A DNA stretch of 63,773 bases, the filler included, from Reclinomonas americana ATCC 50394 (lineage: Eukaryota), in assembly GCA_048213135.1 (NCBI GenBank). It is 6 parts of 6 records of this genome, joined end to end, with 100 filler letters (N's around TTAATTAATTAA, not from the genome) between each part and the next. Parts side by side here need not be neighbours in the genome. Positions count along the whole stretch, not along the records: positions 1 to 28,969 come from PS015559.1; 5 more parts are not named here. One strand, written 5' to 3'. A program made the translations under genes and the position numbers. Under the pieces are notes generated by a model. That model was not told where the DNA came from. It made no database searches and saw nothing but the letters and a program-made list of their open reading frames with translations. Each line of letters starts with the position of its first letter. Position 1 is the stretch's first letter. Shown here in pieces: positions 65-62,666 of the stretch.

Positions 65-2813
65 ATGGCGCCGGGACCTGTGGATGTTGCGTCTTGTGTT
101 AACCATGCAGGAGGATGTGTGCTTCCCTTGTTGCTCTCTCTCGGCCTCTGTGGTGCTCCGATTCATGGCATTCTTGCTCTCCCTCCTCGCTATTCTCATT
201 CTTTGTCCCTGTTGACTCTCTTTCTTGCACTCTGTCTGGTCTCTGTCTCTCCCCTGTCTCCCTCCGTCCCTCTCCTTCTCCTCTCGTCCTCTCACCTGTT
301 GCTGCTTTCTCCATTCTCTGTTTCTCTTCTCTTTCTCTTCTCTCTCCCCAGTCTCCCCACCGTCCTCCTCCCCCATCTCTCTCCTCTCCGCCTCCCTTTC
401 TCACCCCTCTCTCCGCCTTCTTTTTCACTCGGAACCCGTTGCAGGAAATGTACATTGCCGTGATCCTGCGCGAGACGCTGAAGGTACTGTTCTTCCACGT
501 GCGTGCGTGTTTGCTGCTCGCTGGCCGCCTTGCTCACTGTTGCGCACCAGGCGCTGGAGTACCTGCATTCGTCACAAAAGCTGCATCGCGACATCAAGGG
601 TACGTACGTTTTCTCCTTCTCCGAAATGCAGCAGCACGGGGTGTTTGCAACTTGCACTGCATGCTGAATTGTCGCGGGGAAATCATGCAGCGGCCAACAT
701 TCTCGTGGCCTCCAACGGTGACGTGAAGCTTGCCGATTTTGGTGTCGCTGCGCAGGTGATGTATCTATGTGTGAGGTTAATGCCCTCCGTCGACCTCACC
801 CTCGCTCCGCAGCTCTCGGAAAACCGTACCAAGAGACACACATTTGTTGGCACACCGTTCTGGATGGCTCGTTGCGTTTCTGCTCTTGCTGCAATACCAC
901 ATCCCTCTCCCTTGTTTCACCCCGCACTCACTTTCCCCTCCCTCCGCAGCGTTGCGTTACTACAGAGCCTCTCTTGTTCTCTATCCTGGCGATTTCTAAC
1001 TCGATTGGCATGCAGTGAGGTCATCCGGCAAACCTCGGGCTACAACGAGAAGGTGCACTTGCTGCAGAGAGTGCTTGCCACTGGCCTTCTCCTCACCAGT
1101 GTCGGCACAGTGTGACATTTGGTCGTTGGGCATCACCGCGATTGAGATGGCCAAGGGCGCACCGCCGTACTCGGACCTCCACCCGATGCGTGCCCTCTTT
1201 GTCATTCCCAAGTCGCAGCCGCCACAGCTGGAGGGCAACTTCTCGCGCTCCTTCAAGGAGTTTGTGGCGGCCTGTCTGCAGAAGGAGCCAGAAGCAGTTG
1301 CGTTTCCCCGTGATACTTCGGATTTAATGTCATGCAGTCGGCGCACTCCTTCCTCGTTGCACTCCTCCGTCGTTGCACTCCTCCCTCGTTGCACTCGCCT
1401 CCCTCGTTGCACTCCTCCCTCGTTGCACTCCTTCCTTGTTGCACCTCTCCCTCGTTGCACCCCTCCGTCGTTGCACCTCCCTCGTTGCACTCCTGCCTCG
1501 TTGCACTTCTGCCTCGTTGCACTNNNNNNNNNNNNNNNNNNNNNNNNNNNNNNNNNNNNNNNNNNNNNNNNNNNNNNTTGCACTCCTCCCTCGTCGCACT
1601 CCTCCCTCGTTGCACTCGTCTCCCCTCCCTCGTTGCACTCGTCTCCCCTCCCTCGTTGCACTCCTCCCTTCTCTCGTTGCGCGCTGACCCTGCTCTCTTT
1701 CTCCCTCCTTCCCCCCTCTCAGAGACCAACCGCCCGCGAGCTGCTGAAGCACCGCTTCATCAAAAGCGCCAAGAAAACCTCCCTGCTGGTGGACCTCATT
1801 GAGCGGAGAGAGATGTACGAGGCCAACCGCGACTCTGATGACGACGATCCGGGACGTCTGTTTCGTCTCCTTTCCGTGTCCCCATTCCTGCACCTCATCA
1901 CTCACCACACGCTCCAGCAACCCACCGTCGGGTTCGGCCTCGGGCGCCGACTCCTCTGATCCGGGGTGGAGTTTCACCATGCGACCACGCGACACGCCTG
2001 GCGCAGCGTCTGGCGGCTCATCGGCCGCCGCCTCACCGGCACCCTCCCCGCAGCCGCCGTCGCACTTGTCCGCGGCCGCTTCATCCGTGGTCTCGTCGGC
2101 CACAGCCTCTGTGACACCATCCGCGTCGCCGTCGGTGTTGCAGCTGCCGTCGCCCATTCCACCGCCACGGTTCAGTCCACTGGGCGGTGCACAAGTCGAT
2201 GTTGCGTTCCGGCCGTCCACTCGTTTTCCGTGTCTTTCCCCATCACCTCCCCCTTTGTCAGATGTCTCCCACACCGCAGCAGCGAGCCAATGGTGGTGGC
2301 ATGTCACCGGCACCCGGCGAGTCGTCCTCCGTGCCGAGACCTGAGCGGTGAGTGATGGGGTGTGCGCGCAAGTTGACGTCCGTGTGGCTGATTTGTATAT
2401 GATCGGCAGAGTCCGGTCGGAGACCACCATTGCTACGTCCAACTCGCTGCTGACCAACTACGTTCTGCCGGCGCTCGAGGAGGTTCGTCTCGCTCACTTG
2501 CTGCGTTGAAATCGACACGTCACTGACGAGTGTGCACGCCGGCAGACCGGTTGCGACACACACGAAGTGGAGCGCGAACTGGTGCAAGTCGAGCGCGCCC
2601 ATCCCGGCTTCACCGAAGCGTTTATCACTGCGCTGGTCCAACGATTACGTCGGTGCGTGTCTCTTTCCTCGCTCCTGCTCCACACCTTCTCTCACCCCCT
2701 GCATCAGCACCTCGAATCCTCAAGTGGAAGCCGTGGTGCACCTGGCCGGTGGCGTCGCCGACGAACCAGACGAGTTCTCCGAGTTTCTACTGGAATGCTG
2801 GAAGGCTCGATAG
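65..2813 (+). CDS. STE20-family (GCK-III, STK24/25/26 / SvkA-like) Ser/Thr kinase, 5'-partial, multi-exon
   Basis: Spliced exons read [124 protein letters not shown]...|[14 protein letters not shown]. The C-terminal [20 protein letters not shown] resembles the GCK-III dimerisation tail. 3' exon boundaries are approximate. Confidence 0.93.
1345..1682. repeat. Intronic minisatellite, unit ~CTCCCTCGTTGCACT (contains an assembly gap)
   Basis: Many tandem variants of ctccctcgttgcact inside the kinase intron that starts at 1297. Confidence 0.9.
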
Positions 2814-24140: not shown

Positions 24141-24387
24141 GTGAAGTAAGTAGATTGTTTCTCCGGCACATTCATGTTGTCCATGAAAACTGGATTCTCT
24201 TGTCTTTCCTTCATCTCCGTCGCTTCCTGTGACTGAGTGTTCACCTTCTGCCTGCCTGCCTACCCCCCTGACACTGTGCCCGCAATGTGGATTCTCGGTG
24301 GATGGTACGCTGTGCTGTGAGTCGCTGCTCGTTGGCACTCTTCTCACTTCACTGTTTCTTCCTCGCGACAGCGCCCTGGTGTCGCTA

Positions 24388-26019
24388 ATGGGCGGTCTGT
24401 CATGCGTAACCGTTCACGCCTCCACGCTCCCACACGTGCCGTCGTCGTCGCCGTCGCTGACACAGCAGCGGATCGCGTGTCTTCAGCGGAATCATGTCAA
24501 CCTCAAGTACACGCTGGAGAGGCCGCCGGACCCGCTGGAGCTGCTGCACGCACTCAACGCACTCGGGCACGAACACCTGCTACAAACGGTCTCCACTCGA
24601 GTGTACGACACGCCCACGCATCGCGTGATGCTCGGCAAGCTGGCCAGTATGGCTGTGCTGCTGGCTGAAGATCGGCTGGCGCACACACGGGGTGCGAATG
24701 GCGTGGCAATTGTCGGGGCTGACGGCGTCGGCAAGTCGACTGTGCTGCGCGTCTTCGCCGAGGTGTGTCCGCTGATGGCGCCGACGGTGGTGCCAGTGTA
24801 CGTCAGCGTCAGCAGCATGCTTGGTGAGATTGACGGACGCGGTTTCAGTGCCGGCGTGCGTCCGCTCGGCGAACTCGCCTGCGAGGCACTGGAGCGGCAC
24901 GGCTTTATCGTGCCGAGTCGACCCTCCTCCATTAATGGCAATAGCGGCAACGGCAACGGCAACAACGGCAGCAGCAACAATGCGGATGAGCGCGAGGGCG
25001 ACAACTGGAGTGCCCTCCGTGTGGCCGACTCGGTGCTGGCCGCCACCAATCGGCACATTCTCTTCCTCGTCGACGACGTGGACCAGCTGTATACCGTCAA
25101 GGCGTTGCAGTCGACACTAGAGGAGGCGCAGCTGGCGCGCGGATTGCTGCGCGAGATGGCGGCCCTGGCCGATGGGTTTCCCAGCGGTCGATTCGCCGTG
25201 GTTCTCTGCAGTTCGTCTCCGTCGCTCCCGCTGCTCATCAACCGGCAGGCCGTGCGCGACTCCAACCTGAGCAACGAGTACCCGCTGGTGCAAGACTGCC
25301 CGACTCTCACCTCCAGCCGCTTTCCCACCTTTCGGGTGCCGAACGGCTTGATGAACGACCTGAACCTAGTGCAACAAATGCTCCAGCTCGACGACGAGAA
25401 CAAGGCGCGACTGGTGCTGTTCACGTACGGAGCGACTCCACGCCGCGTGCTACGCGGCCTCCACGACCTGGCATTCTACACCGCTCACGGCGGTGTGCGA
25501 GAGGACAGCATGGATCGCACCGACAGCACGCAGCTGGCCATGAGCGACGACTTGGTGGCGGCCTTCTATCAGAAACTGCTGGAGACGATGCGCGAGAAGA
25601 ACGAGGAGTTGCTGAAGAGCCTCATGGTGGAGCCCGACGCCAAGGTGCTATCGGTGGAGCGTGTCACCGAGGTACCGTGGGAGAAGCGCTTTACGCCGCT
25701 GTCGTTTCCCGAGGCTCGCGACGTGTTTGCCGAGGTGCTGCTGAAGCGCGGCAATCAAGCCGACGATGTGCGTGGTCATCAGCTCAACGAGACCCTCTTT
25801 CGCCTGCACGACCTTGGTCTGCTGATGGTGGATCGTGCCGGTGACGGCGTGCCGCACTGGATCTACCCGATGACGATGCGGCATCTGGTGGAGAGCTATC
25901 TCGGCGAGCAGCGCGACATGCAGAAATTCGTCACCACAGTGTCGGTGGAGCTCGGCAAGTGGCTGCGCCAGCCGTTGCAGTCGGTGGCGAACTTGTTGCC
26001 CGGCAGGGGCGGCGGATAG
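24388..26019 (+). CDS. Intronless P-loop NTPase (AAA/STAND-like), function unknown
   Basis: Single ~540-codon ORF with Walker A GADGVGKST and Walker B ILFLVDDVD. First in-frame ATG is at 24388. Confidence 0.8.
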   Translation: MGGLSCVTVHASTLPHVPSSSPSLTQQRIACLQRNHVNLKYTLERPPDPLELLHALNALGHEHLLQTVSTRVYDTPTHRVMLGKLASMAVLLAEDRLAHTRGANGVAIVGADGVGKSTVLRVFAEVCPLMAPTVVPVYVSVSSMLGEIDGRGFSAGVRPLGELACEALERHGFIVPSRPSSINGNSGNGNGNNGSSNNADEREGDNWSALRVADSVLAATNRHILFLVDDVDQLYTVKALQSTLEEAQLARGLLREMAALADGFPSGRFAVVLCSSSPSLPLLINRQAVRDSNLSNEYPLVQDCPTLTSSRFPTFRVPNGLMNDLNLVQQMLQLDDENKARLVLFTYGATPRRVLRGLHDLAFYTAHGGVREDSMDRTDSTQLAMSDDLVAAFYQKLLETMREKNEELLKSLMVEPDAKVLSVERVTEVPWEKRFTPLSFPEARDVFAEVLLKRGNQADDVRGHQLNETLFRLHDLGLLMVDRAGDGVPHWIYPMTMRHLVESYLGEQRDMQKFVTTVSVELGKWLRQPLQSVANLLPGRGGG

Positions 26020-26154: not shown

Positions 26155-28759
26155 TTACTCGGGGAAGTTGCCTTCGCCATCATTGTCCACTGGCGGCGGC
26201 GGCATGCCAGCACCCGCCAGCATGCCCTGTTGCCGCATGGCCAGCATCATCGGAATCTGCGGCACGGCCTCGGCAGCGCGCGCCAGACTACAAAACGGGT
26301 TGAGGAACGAAAAATGAGTGAGGACGCACATACGCGTGTTCTTGTAGTTTTTCAGCACGCACCTCACGCGACCAGTGTTCTCGGGGTCCAAAATCTGGAA
26401 GATCGGATCGAGAGCCTCAGTGCGGATGAGCAACAGGCCCACCTCCTTGATGATGGCCAGGTACACGTGGATGATCTGACAAACCATGCGGTGAGATGCG
26501 TGAGTGTCACCCGAGTACTGCTACTGCGGAGCGGGGATACACACCTCGAGGATCAGGCGCAGCATGCGCTTGGTGATGATCTCGGCCTCCTCAATGGTCA
26601 CGCGTCCGTCCTGGCCGCAGCAACACGCAGTGAGGAACAATGCGCACAACAACACACCGCGAGATTCGCCGCTCGTTCACACACCATGTTGATGTCAAAT
26701 ATCGACAGCAGGCTGACCAACAGAGTGCGGACGCGGTTGATCGGTGGGTTACCGGCCACCGACGGCGCAAAGGCCTCCGCCACACGGAACATGGACTCGA
26801 ACTCGGCGAGCGACACACGGCCGTCTCCCTGCGCACCACCATTTCTTGAGCATCACGAAGACAGCAGTGCCGGCGAGAGACACACAAATTGACGCACGTT
26901 CTTGTCAATCAGCTTGAACACGGCGGAGAAGAGAGCAGGGAACTTGCGCTCCATGACAGCCGGCACATTCTCCGACAGCACTGAGGGGGGAAGAGAGTGA
27001 GAGGGTCAGCAGCAGGCGATGTTGTGGCAACGAAAAGAGCACGCACAGGCGAGAATGGCGGGCGGCAAGGCGGCGGCACCCGGGTTGAAGACGGCAGCCT
27101 GCTGCATGCCTTGGTTGACCTGTGAGGCCGAGTGAGCAGAGTGACAGCGGGAGAGGAATTCAACAAACAGATGCGCAACTCCCTGCATGAAGTCCTCACG
27201 AATGTTGCCGTGTGCCATGCGGTACATGGTGGCCTCCGACACCTGTCCGTCGTCGGACTTGGAGCTGGCCTCCACGAATTGCTGCATCGAAGCAGGTTGG
27301 TGCCAGTCACCGCGACACACAAAACGAACAGAGCACCAACCTCACGGGTGCGGTGGTACTGTGCCATCATCATTCCGTACGGCGACTGCGGCGAGTCGGC
27401 GAGCGCGTTCAGCTGCATCTCCACCATCTGCAGCACTGTTGAAGGAGTCCCGAGTGCATGAGTATTTCTTGCAGGTGAGAGCACACGCTTAGTGACGCAA
27501 CTCTCCGGCGGGATGAGCGCGAGCAGATCGTCGACAGTCACAGCGCCACTATTGAGAGCAGTGAGTGAGACAGTGACACACGCGCGCGCGGGTGATCTCG
27601 TGTGTCAGCACGCAACTCTCCGTCCTGGTCGACAAACATGTAGGCCAGGGAGAGGGCGTTGTGAATCAGCGTCGAGTCGAACAGGAGCACTTGCGACAGC
27701 GAGTCAATGAGCTGGTCGCTGAACATGACGACCGTCTCGAACTGTGCACATGCAGCGTGAGTTGCGCGAAAAATGTCCACCATCACAAGGAAACACAGGA
27801 TGCGCACCAGGTCAGCCAGCAGCGCCGTCAGCGAGTCCTTCGTCAGGTGGCCTGTGAGGAAAACAGATGAGAAAAACGTGAAAGCCGCCGAGCGCAGCAT
27901 CAAACACACCATCGCCGTTCTGCATTACGGGTGAGAAGCGAAACCAACACAGCACGAGGGATATACATCATCACGCACCACGTCGAGAATGGCCAGCAGA
28001 GACGGCAAGTCCTGTCGCGCAAACAGATCCAACACCTCGCGGACCTCGGCCTCGGAGATGCGTCCATCACGGTTGCGGTCAAAGAACTGCCGACACAATC
28101 AACCAATAAGACAACCGTCCATCCACACGACCCGTAAACAGAAGGGCGAAGAGACCTTGAAGAGCTGTGGGATGAGCAAGTTCGAGCGCATCTCCAGTCC
28201 GTGCATCGCACCGTCGACCACCTGCTCCAGCCGCGCTTGGCCTGCAACACGGGAAAAACCGGACCACATATTAACACGGCGCACCAGACAAAATACATCC
28301 TCGATGGTATATTACCTCGAAGACCCGGCGGCAGGCGACCCATGACCTGCAGAATCGAGCCACGAATGATGGCCTGTGCAACAGAGACAGTGAGCACAAC
28401 GAAAAAGGCAGTGACAACAGTGCTCGTTGGAGACCTTGATGGGCGTGTTGACCACCATGCGGAACTCCTCCTGCACAAGCACACAGTTAATCGATGCTGC
28501 GACTGGTGATTGTGGCTTGCGAGTGTGCGCCTCACCAGTTCCACGTTGCCGTCGCGAGCCACCGCCGCCAAAAAGGCCAACGGATCCTCCGTGTCGAGGT
28601 ACTCAGCGACCATGCGCTGTGACTCAGTGCGTCCAAGAGCTCCGTCGTCGGCCTGTCACATAAAGAGAGAGGGAGAGAGGGAAGGGAGAGGGAAAGAGGC
28701 AGGCGGAGTTGAGAGAGACAGCGTGCGAACACATCTCGGGGAAATTTTCTGAGATACAT
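26155..28759 (-). CDS. Multi-EF-hand calcium-binding protein, many short exons
   Basis: Spliced loops FDRNRDGRISEAE, LDV|NGDG|HLTKDS, VDQDGD|GAVTVDD, IDKN|GDGRVSLAEF, FDINM|DGRVTIEE, LDPENTGRV. Ends DGEGNFPE*. Confidence 0.8.
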
Positions 28760-29013
28760 GATGTGCATGTGTGTGCGCTCTTCTCTTGTGTATTGTGTCT
28801 CTGTCATTTGATGGCAATGCTGTGTTTCGGCTATCGTGCGCGCGCGCGTTGTCTGTGACATCTCACACACAAGAAAGGAAAAAAAGACAGACAAGAAAAA
28901 CGACGCGGCAAACGCGCAAAGAAGAGAGAGAGAGAGAGAGAGAGAGGAGGACGCGGCGGAAGGAAGACGNNNNNNNNNNNNNNNNNNNNNNNNNNNNNNN
29001 NNNNNNNNNNNNN

Positions 29014-29025
29014 TTAATTAATTAA
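29014..29025. other. Artificial scaffold spacer TTAATTAATTAA (also at 32954, 53764, 57580, 62169)
   Basis: Identical 12-mer with stops in all six frames, flanked by equal N runs, occurring five times. Confidence 0.97.
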
Positions 29026-29070
29026 NNNNNNNNNNNNNNNNNNNNNNNNNNNNNNNNNNNNNNNNNNNNT

Positions 29071-32760: not shown

Positions 32761-33402
32761 TCGAGTTCCACCTGCCTTTCTTGCATCCTGCCACTTACTC
32801 TTGATCCTTATGGTGGCGCAGCCCCGATCTCCACCGCCTTGCCCTTCACACACACACACACACACACATAGCAATCAACTTCCGCTCCCTCCTGACCTCA
32901 TCATTCATGNNNNNNNNNNNNNNNNNNNNNNNNNNNNNNNNNNNNNNNNNNNNTTAATTAATTAANNNNNNNNNNNNNNNNNNNNNNNNNNNNNNNNNNN
33001 NNNNNNNNNTGAGTACGCTCACTGTAACTCTCTCCACTGCCTCTGCCAGAGCAAGCACCTGTCAACGCACTCATCTCAACCTCTTTCTCCACCCCTCTCT
33101 CATCTCAGTCTCTCACGTTGCGTGCCTGCTAATCCCCTCGACACCTCTCAGCACGCGACGCTTGAATCTCGCTATCTCTCACTCACTCTCACGCATACAG
33201 AAAGCTGCCTGACAGCTCGCTCACAGTCGCTCTCTCCACTCCCCTCTGCCAGAGCAACCGTCCCACATGATTAATCACTCGCTTCAAACCGCATCACGCA
33301 ACACACAAAGTCTCTCTCTCCACTTCGCCGCCTACTGCTATCTCTCCCTTCCCCTTCCCTTTCCCCCTTCCCCCCTCCCTCCCCTTCCTCCTTCCCTCAT
33401 GC

Positions 33403-35188
33403 CCACCGAGTCATCCTCCGACGCCACCGCCAGCTCATCCGAATCCGCCTCAAACGGATTCCACTCAATCGAGGTAATGGGCCCGGCGTGATACGCATGC
33501 CCGCCCACGGGCTGGAACGACGGCTGGCGCGCAATAAACTTGCGCAGATCCCACACCTTGAAGGCACCATCGTCGCCGCCCGAGGCCAGCAAGTGCGCCT
33601 GATGCCTGCACTCCAACGAGTGAGAATGTAGAGGGACGAAACCACCACAAGACGGCTTCCTTTGACACCAACCTGTTCCATGAAATCACATTCACGTCGC
33701 TGTCGTGCGCCTGCACCGTCAGCTGGCACTTCTTTTCCCTGGTGTCCCAGATGCGCACGGTGTGATCGGCCGAGCAGGTGGCAAACACGGTGCGCTCCGT
33801 CGGGCTCCACTGAATGTCCTCCACCGACGACTTGTGCCCTCTCCGAGCCGCCTCCACCTGCCATGCTCCGGCCTCCAGCGGCTTCCACACGCACACGTGA
33901 TTTGCGCAGTCGCCACTCGCGAACCTGGGGAGTCGGTGTGAGTCTCTCAAGATGGAAGGGAAAGAAGCGCACTGTGCAAGAGACGCAACAATCCCGGCGT
34001 CAGCAGACTCCAGTCCATCGCAAATCCCTCGGCGGCGTGCTGATGCGAGAAGAGTGGCGCGGGGTTGGCCGACTGGCGGTGCATGGGGCCGACCAGCGAT
34101 GCAATCTTCTCCGCAATATCCCACATGTAGACGTTGCCGTCCTCGGACCACGAGGCCACAATGTTGGAGTGTTGTGGCATGCACTAGGAGGAGCAGGTCA
34201 GCGACGCAAAAGCAGAAGGAAGGATGTGAGACGTACTCACCCTCACACGGTTGACAGCGCCAGGGTGCGGCACAGTGCGATGCTCCAGCACCGGATCATC
34301 GTCGACATTGTCACCCGTCTCGTCCTCATCGTCGCCTGCTCGCACACGTCAGGCCTTGTCTTGTCTATGCTTCTCTCCCTCCATCTCGCTCTCACGCAAC
34401 TATCCAGCGCCTCATCAAACTTGGTGCGATACAAGTCCGAGAACTTCATCACATACAGCATGCTGGCACCGTCCGCCGCCTGCGATCCACTGACCAAGAA
34501 GCCCGTCATCGGGAACTACACAAGCAGCAAGTGAGCAAGCGATGGCGAAGCCAACGTTCTACTACTACACAGTAACGCAACATTGACGCGGTTCTCGCCC
34601 AAATCGTCTCGAATGCAATCAAACGACAAGCACGGCCACTCGGCGGCCACCGCGTAGTAAATCTCGTACGCACTCGAGTCGTAATCAAGCACCTCGTCCT
34701 CGCCCATTCCCTGCGATCGGCGCCACACTGCGACCGGACCCTTTGCCTCCTCATCTTCCTCGTCGTCTTCCTCTTCGTCGACTGGAGCCGCAGAGGAGCT
34801 TGCACCTCCCCCCTCCTCGTCCTCATCGATTTCCTCATCGTCGAATGCCGCCGGTTCCTCTTCGTATTCGTCCTCAAAGGCATCCTCAAAGTTCGGCAAC
34901 TCGCCGTCGTCCTCCAAATCGCGTCTGAGGGGCGCGCGCGTGTAAACAAAGTGTGTGAATGTGCCGTGATGTGCAGATCTGCACATGCCCCCCGCCCCCT
35001 CTCACTCGCGCCCACACGCACTCTTCGTCGTGTTCTCCCTCGTCGTGCTCTAGTGGCTCCTCCGCGACATCACGCACAGAGCGTGCCACTGCATCGTCTC
35101 CGGCGGCTGCTCCTGCGCCGGATGAGGCAAAGGTCACTGCGCGTCGCTTCTTGCGCCCGGATGAGCCCTCTCCTCTTCTCTTTGGCAT
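33403..35188 (-). CDS. GRWD1: Glutamate-rich WD repeat protein 1 / Rrb1, 3'-partial
   Basis: FEDAFEDEYEEE, LDYDSSAYEIYY...EWPCLSFDCIRDDLGENR|FPMTGFLVSGSQA, EGFAMDWS, GHKSSVEDIQWSPTERTVFATCSADHTVRIWD, LLASGGDDGAFKVWDLR, HAGPITSIEWNP. Confidence 0.93.
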
Positions 35189-40724: not shown

Positions 40725-43700
40725 TCACTTGACGTGCACCCACCACGTCGGCGCCGTATCCACTCCTTGCGCGCGCTGCCTCTCCGAGCTCTTGGCCAGT
40801 CGGCGGTAGTGGTGCAGGACGGGCTCAGTGTAACCATTCGGCAGATCGCATCCCTCAAACACGAGGGCGAGGGCGGCACGCATGGCCAGATTGCGGTGGC
40901 TGACCTCCAGTGGCTTGTACGCGCGATCGCCGGCGTTTTGCTGATTGACCACACGGGCCATGCGCGCGAACGAGTCAAACACCTGCTCGGGGGTGACGAT
41001 TTCGTGCGCAAGCCAGTTGGCCACGTGCTGCGAGCTGATGCGCAGCGTGGCGCGATCCTCCATCAGTGGCACGTCGCTAATGTCGGGCACCTGACACGAT
41101 ACCGATTGAGTGGGCATCGTCGTCGATGTTCGCTGGGCAGCGCAGACTCTCACCTTCGAGCATCCCACACCCTGGTCGACCCATCGCACCACGTAGCCGA
41201 GCATGCTCTGCACGTTGTTGTCCAGCTCGCGTGCAATCTCCTCTCCACCCAGCTTGACATCGGCCGGCAGCAGCGGCGGCGACAGCAGGTCGGTCAGCGA
41301 CGCGCGCGGTCCGCCCTCCTTCAGCACCGCCTGCTTGGTGCGCACATCCACTTGGTGGTAATGCAGGGCGTGGAGAGTCGCGGCGGTGGGACTCGGGCAC
41401 CACGCGCAGCTGGCGCCGGCCGCCGGGTGGCCGACCTTGGTGGCCAGCAGGCCCTTCATGTCGTCGGGAGCTGGAGAGGAGAAGGAGGGGGAGAGATGAG
41501 AAGAGACGAGCAGAGAAGTGAAGAAGAAATGCCTCTCTCCCAACTCACCTGCCCACATGCCCTTGCCGATCTGGCCGTGCCCGACGAGACCGAGCGACAG
41601 GCCGGCGTCCACGTTGCCGTCCTCGTAGGCACGCATGAATGGTTGGCTTTTGATTTGTGCTTTTGGCAGCATCGCGCCGGCAATCATGCTGCGAAGGGGG
41701 AAAGGGGGTGTGAGAAGGAGAGGGAGAAAGGGAGGTAGGGAGGGAGGGAGGGAGGGAGGGAGGGAGGGAGGGAGGTAGGGAGGGAGGGAGGGGAGGGAGG
41801 GAGGGAGCGGAGGGAAGGGAGGGGAGGAAAGGGAGGGAGGGGAAGAGAAGGGGAATGGGAAGGGACGGAGAGAGGGAGGGAGAGGAAGTGAAAGGATAGG
41901 GAGGGAGTGAGGGAGTGAGGGAGGGAGGAAGCGATGGGGATAGATAATGAGTGTGACTGCGATCAGCGACTGCAGCATGTGAGAGCATGCAGTGAATGTG
42001 TGTGGGAGAGAAAGAACGAGAGAGAGAGGGAGGAAAGGAAGAAAGGAGAAAGGGAAGGGCATAGAAAGAAGGAGAAGCACAAGAAGATTAAGAGGAGCGC
42101 AGTCGCGGTGTTGGTCACTGCTGCTGGTGGCGGTAAGGAGAGGAAGAAGCGACGTCGGAACAAGTGAGTGAGAGGGAGCGAGAGTGAGAGAGAAGGGAGG
42201 GAGAGTGAAAGGGAGACGGAGTGAGTGAAGAGAAAGAGGGAAGATAGGGAAGGGCTGCGAGTGAGAGAAGGACAGGAGTACGCGTGAGCGTGTGTGTGAG
42301 AGATGGAAAAGAGTGGTAGGGAGACAGGGAGGGAACGGAGTGAGTGGATGTGAGACAAGGGAGGATGAGAGAGATGGAAGTGATAGCGATTGATTGCAAT
42401 CAGTGTGCGAGAGAGNNNNNNNNNNNNNNNNNNNNNNNNNNNNNNNNNNNNNNNNNNNNNNNNNNNNNNNNNNNNNNNNNNNNNNNNNNAGATGGAGAAT
42501 GAAAGATCGCGCCTGTGAGTGACTGATAACGTGTGGAAGAGTGCCGTGAGAGAATGCATGGGCGAGTGAGCGAGTGAGCGTAATTGTTGAGAATTGCCCG
42601 ACCTCTCCCAAAGCCACGAGACACTCACCTCGTGTGGATCTCATCGCCAGTGCGATCGAGGAAACCGGTGTTGATGAAAAACACGCGTTCTGCAGCCTCT
42701 GAGATGCACGCGGCAATGTTGACACTCGTGCGACGCTCCTCGTCCATGATGCCGATCTTAATCGTGCGTGGTGGCAACTCCAGAGCTGTGACGATGTGAG
42801 CGCATGAAGCGCAAGCCCTCCCGCCATCACTACGCGCGCACCTTCTTCCACCGCCGCAAAAAAGTCACACACAAACGCCACCTCCTCCGGACCGTGCATC
42901 TTCGGCTTGACAATGTACAGGCTGCCTGCTCGCAGATGGTGTCGCTCGGCAGCCGGCTTGCGCAGCTCATGGAGTGCCGCCACCGCAGACACCAGCGCTG
43001 CACAACCTCCGTATGTGAGAACAATCACACATTCCAACTTCTTCCCCTGCAAAGCACTCACCATCCAAAAAGTGCTCGGGCGTCGGCTCGCCATCTGCCG
43101 TGCACACAGCATCGCTGTACATGTGCAGACCGACGTTGCGAATGAGGAGGAGACTGCGACCCGGCAGCGCGAACGAGCGACCATTGTGTGGCGCCACGTA
43201 GGTGCGATCGGGTGCGAGACCGCGCGACACGGTGCGCCCGTCTTTGCTGAACGACGCCTCGAGCGTGCCCTTCATCAGACCCAGCCAGTTGGTGTAGCAG
43301 CGCGCCTTGTCACGCCCGTCCACCACCGCCACACTGTCCTCCAGGTCCATGATGGTGCTGAGCGCCGACTCCACCACCACATCGTACAGTCCCGCCCGGT
43401 GCGTGCGGCCAATCGGATGCTGCGGGTTGATGAGGATCTCCACGTGCAGGCCGTTGTGGCGCAGCAGCACGCAAGCGAGTCGCTTGGATTGTGCGTCGAC
43501 GCGGTAGCCCACAAATTGGTGCGTGTGTACCAGGCCTACATTGGCGTTGGTGGCGGTGCGCAGTTGCAGGCGATTGCCGTGAAGGACTGGAGGGGAGAGG
43601 ATGTGAGGGAAGAGGCAAGGGAAGAGAGGAAAGGAGACTGGACACGCACCGAATTCGGTGATGGAGCTGAACGGGGTGCCGCCCGTGAGTGGGAACGTGG

Positions 43701-45302
43701 CGGTGAGGAACTCCTCGACCTTGGAAAACACGGCTGCACCGCGTGCGGGGTTGTACTTGCCGTCGGCGTTGCGGCGTAGTGCGCCCTCCTCCGGCACGGC
43801 GTTGGTGCCGTAGAGGGCGTCCAGCAGACTGCCCCAGCGTGCATTGGCCGCGTTCAGGGCGAAGCGCGCGTTGTCAATGGGGCACACCAGCTGCGGTCCG
43901 GCCACGTCGGCCAGCTCCGGGTCGACGTTGGTGGTGGTCACCGTGCGCCACTGTGATGATGAGAAGGGAGATGAGAGGGTGGACAAGAAAGGGTCATGGA
44001 GGAGGAGGGGGTGAACCTTGGCGTCCTCCAGCGGCGCAATGTAGCCAATGTCGCGGAGGAAGAGGGTGTAGGCGGCGACGTCCATCGGTTTGTCGGCGTG
44101 GTCCTCGTGCCAGCAGTCGATCCAGGACTGCGAAAAGAGGGAAAGGATGAGGGAAAGGGAGGAAGGGGGGAAAGGGACGGGGGAGGAAAGGGGAGGAAAG
44201 GGAAAGGGAATGGGGGAAGGGGGAAGGAGGAAGGGGAAGGGGAAGGGGAACGGGAAGGGGAAGGGGAAGGGGGCAGGAGAGTTGCAGAGACGGAGGCAGA
44301 GCGGAGGAAATCTGACACACAGAAGTGGCTACTGAAACAAGTTGGAGATGACAGCAAACGCTCGTTGAACGAATTGTGTGTGCGTGTGCGTGTGTGTGTG
44401 CGCGCGAGAGAGAGAGAGCGAGAGTGACCACACCGTAAAATAAGACAAAGAGGGTGCAGTCGACCTTGCCGAGAACGAAGCGAAGACAGAAAGACGAATT
44501 AAGAGGAGTCAGCGATTAGGCGAGAGACGGGAAGGAACAGCCGATAGGACGATTGAATTGTGCGGAGAAGGAAAAGACTAAAGACAACAGCGAAATAGCA
44601 GTGAGGGCAGGAGAACCCGTTTCAGTCAGCAGAGAACTGTACTCCATCAAAGAGAAGTGGACAATTAGGCGAGAAAAGACGGAAGACCAGCAGGGAGATG
44701 GCAGAGAGGACAGAAGCGAGAACTGCACTCAGCCAAAGAGAAGAGGACAGACTGCCAAACAGCAGAGACGACAGCAGAGAGGGCACACGAAGGAATTCCT
44801 TACAAGCGGCAGAGAACTGCACTTAGCCAAAGAGTTGAGGACTGATCAGGCGAGGAATGAAGGAAGACCAGCAGAGAGGTGGCACAGAGGACAGAAGCGA
44901 GAGCTGCACTCTGCCCAGGAGCGAAGAAGATCAGGCGAGGAGGGAGAGCAGACAGCAGAACCAGAAGCGAGAACTTCGCTGATACTGCACACCCCCAAAG
45001 AGTAGATGACAGAAAGGATGACACCACTCAGTCAGCAGAGAGCTGCACTCCGCCGTAGAGAAGAGGACCACTTTCTTCCCCTCTTAGCCTCCTTCTCCAT
45101 TCCTCATCACCTGCAACTCATCACGCCGCTCCAACAACTCGCGATTTCGCTTCCCAAATCGCTGCGTCAAATCGCCCAACAATCGCCAAAACCGCTCCGC
45201 ACTCAACCCCGTCCCCGCCACCAGCTCATCACGCACAAACGACACCAATATCGGTTCCACACGGAGTCCACTGCGAAGAAATAATGAAGAGAATCTCAGC
45301 AT
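40725..45302 (-). CDS. glcB: Malate synthase G (bacterial GlcB type), 8 exons
   Basis: [166 protein letters not shown]. Confidence 0.96.
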
Positions 45303-61780: not shown

Positions 61781-62666
61781 ACGGCCTTCGTTGTGATGAT
61801 TGAGAGAGAATCGGAGGACACGCGCTCCGGGACGCGAAGTCTCGACTTTGTGTGGGCATCAGTGCGGTTGAGAAGCGCAATGGGTTAAGCGGATGTGGAA
61901 CGCTAAGTGGATTCAAGCTGCAATACGAGCAGAAAGGCCGCCGGTCAAGTGCGAAGTCATCAGCTGACTTGAATTGCTGCATGGTCTGTCCGTTCCCTCC
62001 CTGACGACCTTTCTCCCTCTCTCTCTTTCTCTCTCCTCTTCCTCCTCCTTGTCAACCTTCTGTTCTCTCCCTCACCTCTTAGTCCCCCTTCTCCTCTTCT
62101 CTCCCTTCCACTCTCTCTCTCTCTNNNNNNNNNNNNNNNNNNNNNNNNNNNNNNNNNNNNNNNNNNNNTTAATTAATTAANNNNNNNNNNNNNNNNNNNN
62201 NNNNNNNNNNNNNNNNNNNNNNNNAAAGGGGTGGTGATGCGCTCTCCGCAGACAAACACGAGGAAAAACAAAATAAACGGAAAACGACCCCGCGCCCACT
62301 GACGGTTACTCCTGCGTGATGCTCACGGGCATCGCATGCACACACACACACACACAATGCACACACAGATCGAGAGGGGAGAGAGAGAGACGAGGGGGAG
62401 GAGGAGGGAGAGCGCGTGCGTACCGAAAAATTCCGACCGCACTCCGTCCACCGGCAATCCATTGCACTTCATTCAACCCAACGACAGCCGCTCCAGCGTG
62501 TGATAGGGCACATGCCCAGCACACCTCCACATATCACCGAGTAGAAAGCGTCAAACGAGCGACGTAGAATGGAAAGAAAAAAGTGCGGGACAGACGTAGC
62601 TCGCGGGCACGGGATTGTCACCTTCCCACCCATTGTCATCGTGTGTGTTTGCGCGCGTGTTTGTGA

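Follow-up and report, generated by a model that had tools for sequence, protein, structure and literature searches.

How a protein kinase gene of Reclinomonas americana ATCC 50394 encodes the proline of its conserved APE motif is the question raised by this locus. The gene lies at the beginning of a stretch of 63,773 nucleotides (nt) from assembly GCA_048213135.1, which is called the window here and consists of six parts of six records joined end to end with 100-letter fillers; positions count along the window, and strands are given as + or -. The exon that encodes the residues before the proline ends with the first base of its codon (C870), and the next recognisable exon starts with the third (T1016), so that removal of the intervening 145 nt as one intron loses a base and the reading frame. 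The best explanation found is that C950, a single base between two complete short introns, is probably a real exon of one nucleotide, by which the proline codon would be completed.

Layout of the site and reading frame

Read base by base, positions 871-1015 consisted of a 79-nt GT-AG intron (871-949; I1), the single base C950, and a 65-nt GT-AG intron (951-1015; I2). The upstream exon ended in ...TTC TGG ATG GCT C, with C870 as its last base, and the downstream exon opened with T GAG GTC ATC at 1016. I1 began with GTTGCGTTTC at 871 and ran through CTCAC (927-931) and a pyrimidine run to CCGCAG, which reached 949; I2 began with GTTGCGTTAC at 951, contained CTAAC (996-1000), and ended with GCATGCAG at 1015. 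The immediate flanks of C950 were CAG (947-949) before it and GT (951-952) after it. When homologues were aligned to the DNA by tblastn, the aligned exons ended at WMA upstream and resumed downstream of the site. The coordinates, the lengths of the two introns (79 and 65 nt) and the exon ends proposed by the first-pass annotation of this DNA all matched the sequence base for base, and its parse of the region into two complete introns around C950 was supported by each sequence-level test run.

Inclusion of C950 gave a 14-exon model of 1,248 nt that was open through the stop codon TAG at 2811-2813 and contained FWMAPEVI, as had been claimed for the shorter string W-M-A-P-E-V-I. Its omission caused a frameshift with a stop 82 codons on, so the earlier statement that direct joining of 870 to 1016 loses the frame was correct as well. 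Stops also arose when only I1 or only I2 was retained. Read straight through, 870-1016 (147 nt) was in frame and stop-free, with 49 residues of intron-like sequence replacing the proline; annotation based on open reading frames could therefore let a kinase with 49 inserted residues through unnoticed. The remaining 1,247 coding bases of the model had no frame problem.

All GT/GC...AG choices in the region were enumerated, and two-intron parses were allowed a micro-exon of 1-30 nt. None of the 22 single-intron in-frame solutions gave WMAPEVI, the mildest of them removing FWMA. Among 52 two-intron in-frame solutions a single one gave FWMAPEVI, namely 871-949 plus 951-1015. One further junction of the kinase gene and one of an EF-hand gene also fell out of frame in the initial models, and in each case an ordinary GT or AG close by put this right; the APE junction alone, among the junctions out of frame, had no ordinary alternative GT or AG as a remedy.

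Proline stood at the site in all 96 readable homologues (APE in 90, SPE in 5, APG in 1). The homologues totalled 120, of which 24 were left out as truncated or without the anchor motif.

Splice signals at the site

The other 11 introns of the kinase gene measured 55, 57, 58, 58, 61, 62, 63, 67, 91, 359 and 426 nt (median 62). I1 and I2 matched the short intron class, and a single intron of 145 nt would have about 2.3 times the median length. A branch-like YTNAY motif lay 13-20 nt from the acceptor in most of the other introns, the distance being 19 nt in I1 and 16 nt in I2. Pyrimidine fraction was 0.76 in I1 and 0.62 in I2, with 0.68 in the other introns and 0.52 in exons. The GTTGCG donors and the CTCAC and CTAAC branch-like sites assigned to the two introns at first pass thus matched the signals of the other introns of the gene.

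Donor and acceptor weight matrices were trained on 19 other hand-curated introns, the site's own two being excluded. Donor 871 scored 5.6 (95th percentile of the 7,693 GT sites in the window) and donor 951 scored 6.8 (97.7th percentile), and each equalled or beat the majority of the curated donors in leave-one-out scoring. At 16.3, acceptor 949 shared the top place among the 8,037 AG sites in the window and outscored the outer acceptor at 1015, which scored 3.2 (87.7th percentile) and fell within the range of the curated acceptors.

The compound signal formed by a branch motif, 8-35 nt, YAG, one base and GTTGCG had a single occurrence in the 63.8-kb window, both strands counted, and that occurrence was at this site. 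Dinucleotide shuffling of the intron interior produced AG-N-GTTGCG in 7 of 20,000 trials and plain AG-N-GT in 1,400 of 20,000. The AG-C-GTTGCG layout exceeds chance expectation.

Tandem duplication was rejected as the origin of the intron pair. The comparison of I1 with I2 scored 3.5, that of shuffled sequences 5.1 +/- 2.9, and 366 of 500 shuffles scored at least as high as the real pair. Beyond their common donor, the two introns were no more alike than shuffles, and recent tandem duplication hence does not explain the inner donor. An RNA structure joining the splice sites was also rejected, the fold of 851-1035 being no better than those of shuffles (z 0.24). Candidates for other micro-exons in the window were not retained: the four remaining AG-N-GTTGCG sites were ordinary exon ends, and so was AG-GGA-GTTGCG near 27183 (-).

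GTTGCG as a donor in this genome

GTTGCG opened 3 of the 11 other introns of the kinase gene, 3 of the 5 introns of the EF-hand gene (27.6-26.9 kb, -) and at least 3 introns of a GRWD1 gene (34.6-33.9 kb, -). A branch motif and YAG followed 45-110 nt after GTTGCG in 22 of its 68 occurrences in the window, compared with 860 of 7,708 for all GT hexamers. The 68-nt GTTGCG intron at 27616-27549 (-) interrupts the calcium-binding loop DQDGDG (DxDxDG) of the EF-hand, and the loop is whole after splicing; its restoration therefore provides independent validation of this type of donor. Judged by these sequence comparisons, GTTGCG is a real and common donor in this organism. The three exon bases that precede the 19 curated donors had no preference for AG.

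GTTGCG(T) was the commonest 5' splice-site hexamer, being present in 9 of the 19 curated introns, or in 6 of 16 once the three from GRWD1 are set aside. Its positions +3 to +6 depart from the usual GTRAGT. A literature search for GTTGCG or GUUGCG as a splice donor gave nothing relevant among the papers listed. The unusual donor would be worth attention from the field of 5' splice-site recognition.

Kinase gene model

The exon model of the kinase gene was assembled by hand from homology and frame (Table 1). The Pfam family Pkinase matched exon 1111-1296, which in a protein search had 75-82% identity to proteins named STK24, STK25 or MST4 by several sources, and the exon upstream of the site encoded GTPFWMA, a STE20-type segment. 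The identification of the gene as a STE20 kinase, made at first pass, was upheld by these three results. The PDCD10_N-type dimerisation domain PF20929 gave a weak match at 2546-2650 (E 0.0027; 17.7 bits, with a curated cut-off of 19.8), and this domain was present in many full-length proteins of the homologue search. By its predicted product, with the Pkinase match and the STK24/25/MST4-like exon, the gene is a STE20 kinase of the GCK-III type (MST3/MST4/STK25-like), its PDCD10-type domain being a candidate below the cut-off.

The strand opposite the site had no Pfam match, so no antisense gene was found beneath it, and the window contained no known RNA families or tRNAs. The intron that follows exon 1111-1296 (1297-1722) is filled by a minisatellite (1343-1680) with a 16-nt unit, about 11 + 6 copies and a 23-nt variant. 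The minisatellite is split by an assembly gap of 54 N, and its unit contains CGTTGCA, which is near to the donor motif.

Table 1. Coordinates of the proposed one-base exon, its flanking introns and exons, the kinase gene model and examples of GTTGCG(T) donors
Feature	Position in window	Strand	Details
Upstream exon	813-870	+	19 residues plus C870 (base 1 of the proline codon), from translation; tblastn with homologues stops at WMA
Intron I1, 79 nt	871-949	+	Donor GTTGCGTT 871-878; CTCAC 927-931; pyrimidine tract; acceptor CAG 947-949
Proposed one-nucleotide exon, C	950	+	Base 2 of the proline codon C-C-T (APE motif)
Intron I2, 65 nt	951-1015	+	Donor GTTGCGTT 951-958; CTAAC 996-1000; acceptor CAG 1013-1015
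Downstream exon	1016-1052	+	T1016 as base 3 of the proline codon, then 12 residues; from translation and gene model
GCK-III-type STE20 kinase gene, 5' end cut by window edge	65-2813	+	14 exons including C950, 13 introns; TAG 2811-2813
Kinase exons, 5' part	65-85, 445-483, 551-599, 691-755, 813-870, 950, 1016-1052	+	Hand-built model
Kinase exons, 3' part	1111-1296, 1723-1859, 1918-2200, 2262-2347, 2410-2482, 2546-2652, 2708-2813	+	Hand-built model
GTTGCG(T) donor examples	86, 871, 951, 1297, 2201	+	Curated introns and the site
GTTGCG(T) donor examples	27616, 27501, 27179, 34581, 34400, 33989	-	Curated introns

Conservation of the site

Exon 1111-1296 is highly conserved, with a top protein match of 82% identity, and none of its protein matches came from Reclinomonas americana itself. 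A search with the same exon gave 80 related loci, the best of them at 80% identity. The exact 26-base exon string had no match in metagenome contigs. At the position of the site, 60 of the 80 loci were unbroken, 11 were uninformative, and 9 had a break nearby. Five of these nine breaks were examined: one was an intron several codons upstream, and four were phase-0 introns at either the M/A or the P/E boundary. With the examined introns of other eukaryotes falling between codons, the I1/I2 pair looks lineage-specific.

Other features of the window

The GRWD1 gene used above as a source of introns is a GRWD1/RRB1 ribosome-assembly WD40 gene (33300-35000, -). Its best matches over most of the query had 55-65% identity and came from scattered groups (green algae, ichthyosporeans, oomycetes), so that the protein collection appears to hold no close relative of the organism. 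A malate synthase gene of the G type, apparently split by introns, lies at 40725-44328 (-), with the Pfam domains MS_TIM-barrel, MSG_insertion and MS_C; this form of the enzyme is mostly bacterial, and here it stands in a eukaryotic genome. An uninterrupted open frame of 610 codons at 24187-26019 (+) had weak similarity to AAA_16/STAND NTPases, below the curated cut-offs. Paired runs of exactly 44 N with 12 bases between them occur at 28970-29069, 32910-33009, 53720-53819, 57536-57635 and 62125-62224, and this regular 44 N-12-44 N pattern at five places is unlike ordinary scaffold gaps.

Weighing of explanations

C950 is considered, with good though incomplete confidence, to be a real one-nucleotide exon, because the frame needs a base, the splice solution is unique, the proline is conserved and the splice signals are native to this genome. 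Several points weigh against this reading. Both donors (871 and 951) have C at position -1, which is absent from the 19 curated donors (G in 8, T in 6, A in 5), so that neither donor is optimal; at both, the C is forced by the coding sequence. The weight matrices rest on just 19 introns, and since 3 of these (GRWD1) were chosen from the GTTGCG list, the donor matrix overweights GTTGCG. The hexamer also occurs at the non-donor intronic positions 539 and 1676 of the kinase gene, which puts its local background above the window-wide frequency. No close relative with a comparable gene structure was found (proteins at most 82% and loci at most 80% identical), and no intron lay in the interior of the proline codon among the five loci examined. 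Finally, the assembly is at draft stage and has gaps, the window containing 17 N runs, one of them within the minisatellite-bearing intron of the kinase gene.

It is mainly to the gapped state of the draft that an assembly or sequencing error owes its standing as an explanation, albeit an unlikely one. The proline codon would then hold one more base (e.g. two Cs before 871), the 145 nt of 871-1015 would form one intron, and AG-C-GTTGCGTT inside it would be there by coincidence. Plain AG-N-GT was indeed not rare in the shuffles (1,400 of 20,000), and long introns of 359 and 426 nt do occur in the kinase gene. Against this, the error requires two independent unlikely events, including an insertion or deletion within a 3-base target, and a coincidental inner site would need an 8-base donor identical to the outer one, the required C, a branch motif of its own and a tied-best acceptor. 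The other 1,247 coding bases are free of frame problems, and the out-of-frame junctions elsewhere were solved by an ordinary GT or AG, none of which solves the APE junction.

A real loss of one base is very improbable, whether this means a pseudogene of recent origin, a null allele, or splicing of 871-1015 mainly as one 145-nt intron to give a frameshifted, non-productive mRNA. As one intron, 871-1015 would have a good donor and an acceptable acceptor, and its removal does lead to a frameshift and the premature stop after 82 codons. All other exons and the 11 other introns are intact, however, with the frame open to a putative conserved C-terminal domain, and a pseudogene leaves unexplained why a top-scoring acceptor and a consensus donor repair the frame with the right base. 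Another real product is scarcely credible, be it retention of 870-1016, splicing from a weak donor at 857 to the acceptor at 1015 (deleting FWMA to leave GTPEVI) or a shifted non-GT-AG junction yielding Ala-Arg-Glu: the 147-nt read-through is in frame and stop-free and the 857-1015 solution is in frame, but all three destroy or distort GTPFWMAPE, which 90 of the 96 readable homologues keep, the retained stretch has an intron-like composition and no homology, the 857 donor is unlike the type of this organism, and none of the 19 curated introns has a TT-AG or GT-CA junction.

If C950 is an exon, the pre-mRNA would carry two complete and independent short U2-type GT-AG introns that abut this base, and both would be removed. 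The mature mRNA would read GCT, then C870+C950+T1016, then GAG, by which the proline of APE would be rebuilt; C950 would thus be part of the mRNA, presumably through constitutive inclusion. Only one base would separate the 3' splice site of I1 from the 5' splice site of I2, so that their binding factors should be mutually exclusive and I1 and I2 would most likely be removed one after the other. Intron definition, in which splice sites are paired across each intron, would be the expected mode for introns of about 60 nt. From general knowledge of the spliceosome, either order of removal would serve: with I1 gone first, the donor of I2 would lie one base past the new junction, and with I2 gone first, the acceptor of I1 would be followed by C and then by the downstream exon.

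Comparison with known one-base exons and related splicing

Recursive splicing, at the ratchet points of Drosophila and the RS-exons of vertebrates, resembles the proposed events at C950: an internal AG stands beside a GT, a long stretch is removed in two successive steps, and the 5' splice site comes into use only once the upstream piece has been dealt with. Ratchet points are of zero length (AG/GT), leave nothing in the mRNA and sit in very long introns, whereas the kinase site would keep one base, and each half is itself a short intron. Fungal stwintrons are spliceosomal introns nested in the splice site of another intron, and touching introns are there excised in sequence, as I1 and I2 would be. 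In a stwintron, the outer intron has one of its splice signals split by the inner intron, and that signal is formed only once the inner intron has been excised; in I1 and I2, by contrast, both sets of signals are intact, and neither intron is defined through the removal of the other. The placozoan mitochondrial gene cox1 is said to have a single-base exon between two introns, but these are organellar introns with a splicing mechanism unrelated to that of the spliceosomal I1 and I2.

A nuclear exon of one base was proven in Arabidopsis APC11 (Guo and Liu 2015, PMC4674806), and one-base exons of APC11 and VPS55 have been proven across land plants (Yu et al. 2022, PMC8831610). The plant cases are backed by cDNA, mutagenesis, RNA-seq and conservation in land plants (PMC4674806, PMC8831610). 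In Fusarium, a one-base exon of CYP621A is reported with read support, in a paper that counts it as the second example (Nelson and Syed 2026, PMC12940212). The remark in the first-pass annotation that such exons are very rarely documented was fair, yet three nuclear gene families are already in print (PMC4674806, PMC8831610, PMC12940212). The literature search on one-base exons found no case in a protist or in a kinase gene.

In plant APC11 and VPS55, the reading frame depends on one base that stands between AG and GT within an apparent intron and that annotation misses, and the same is true of the kinase site. The plant base is spliced by the ordinary spliceosome, which is also the reading proposed for C950. 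Among the differences, the flanking introns in Arabidopsis are unequal, the base lying 333 nt into an apparent intron of 422 nt, as against 79 + 65 nt here; the VPS55 donors are GTRAGT and those of the kinase site are GTTGCG; and the plant exons are experimentally proven, whereas C950 is predicted from the DNA of a protist-like eukaryote.

The nearest analogue, from its published description, is CYP621A of Fusarium. Its apparent intron measures 139 nt, against a median of 56 nt, and that of the kinase gene 145 nt, against a median of 62 nt; introns are very short in both organisms. In both, too, the base is the middle one of a codon in a conserved motif, which is the Gly of PKG in Fusarium and the Pro of APE here. 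The two differ in that 20 orthologues and SRA reads are reported for the Fusarium exon, with donors near the fungal consensus, and the kinase site is known from one gene.

Implications

The C950 exon would add a member to a class of gene structure that is already known, its presence at the RNA level being predicted. If RNA confirms it, C950 would be among very few nuclear one-base exons (APC11, VPS55 and CYP621A being those found in print), the first known to this report outside plants and fungi, and the first in the catalytic core of a protein kinase. The site would also be a clean test case for sequential, intron-defined splicing. Genes built in this way would be truncated by gene predictors or labelled as pseudogenes.

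A wider reading in two parts is offered tentatively, and that both parts hold together is doubtful. First, the 5' splice site may be read in this lineage from a signal that lies wholly in the intron, GTTGCG(T), and lacks a consensus on the exon side, so that the usual minimum length of an exon would no longer apply; one-base and other ultra-short exons might then arise each time an intron is gained next to an existing one, and could be recurrent and systematically unannotated. Second, because skipping of C950 would give a frameshifted mRNA, its inclusion could switch the dose of a core signalling kinase on or off. As regards C950 itself, the one-base exon would, if true, mean that the minimal exon is no peculiarity of plant or fungal spliceosomes.

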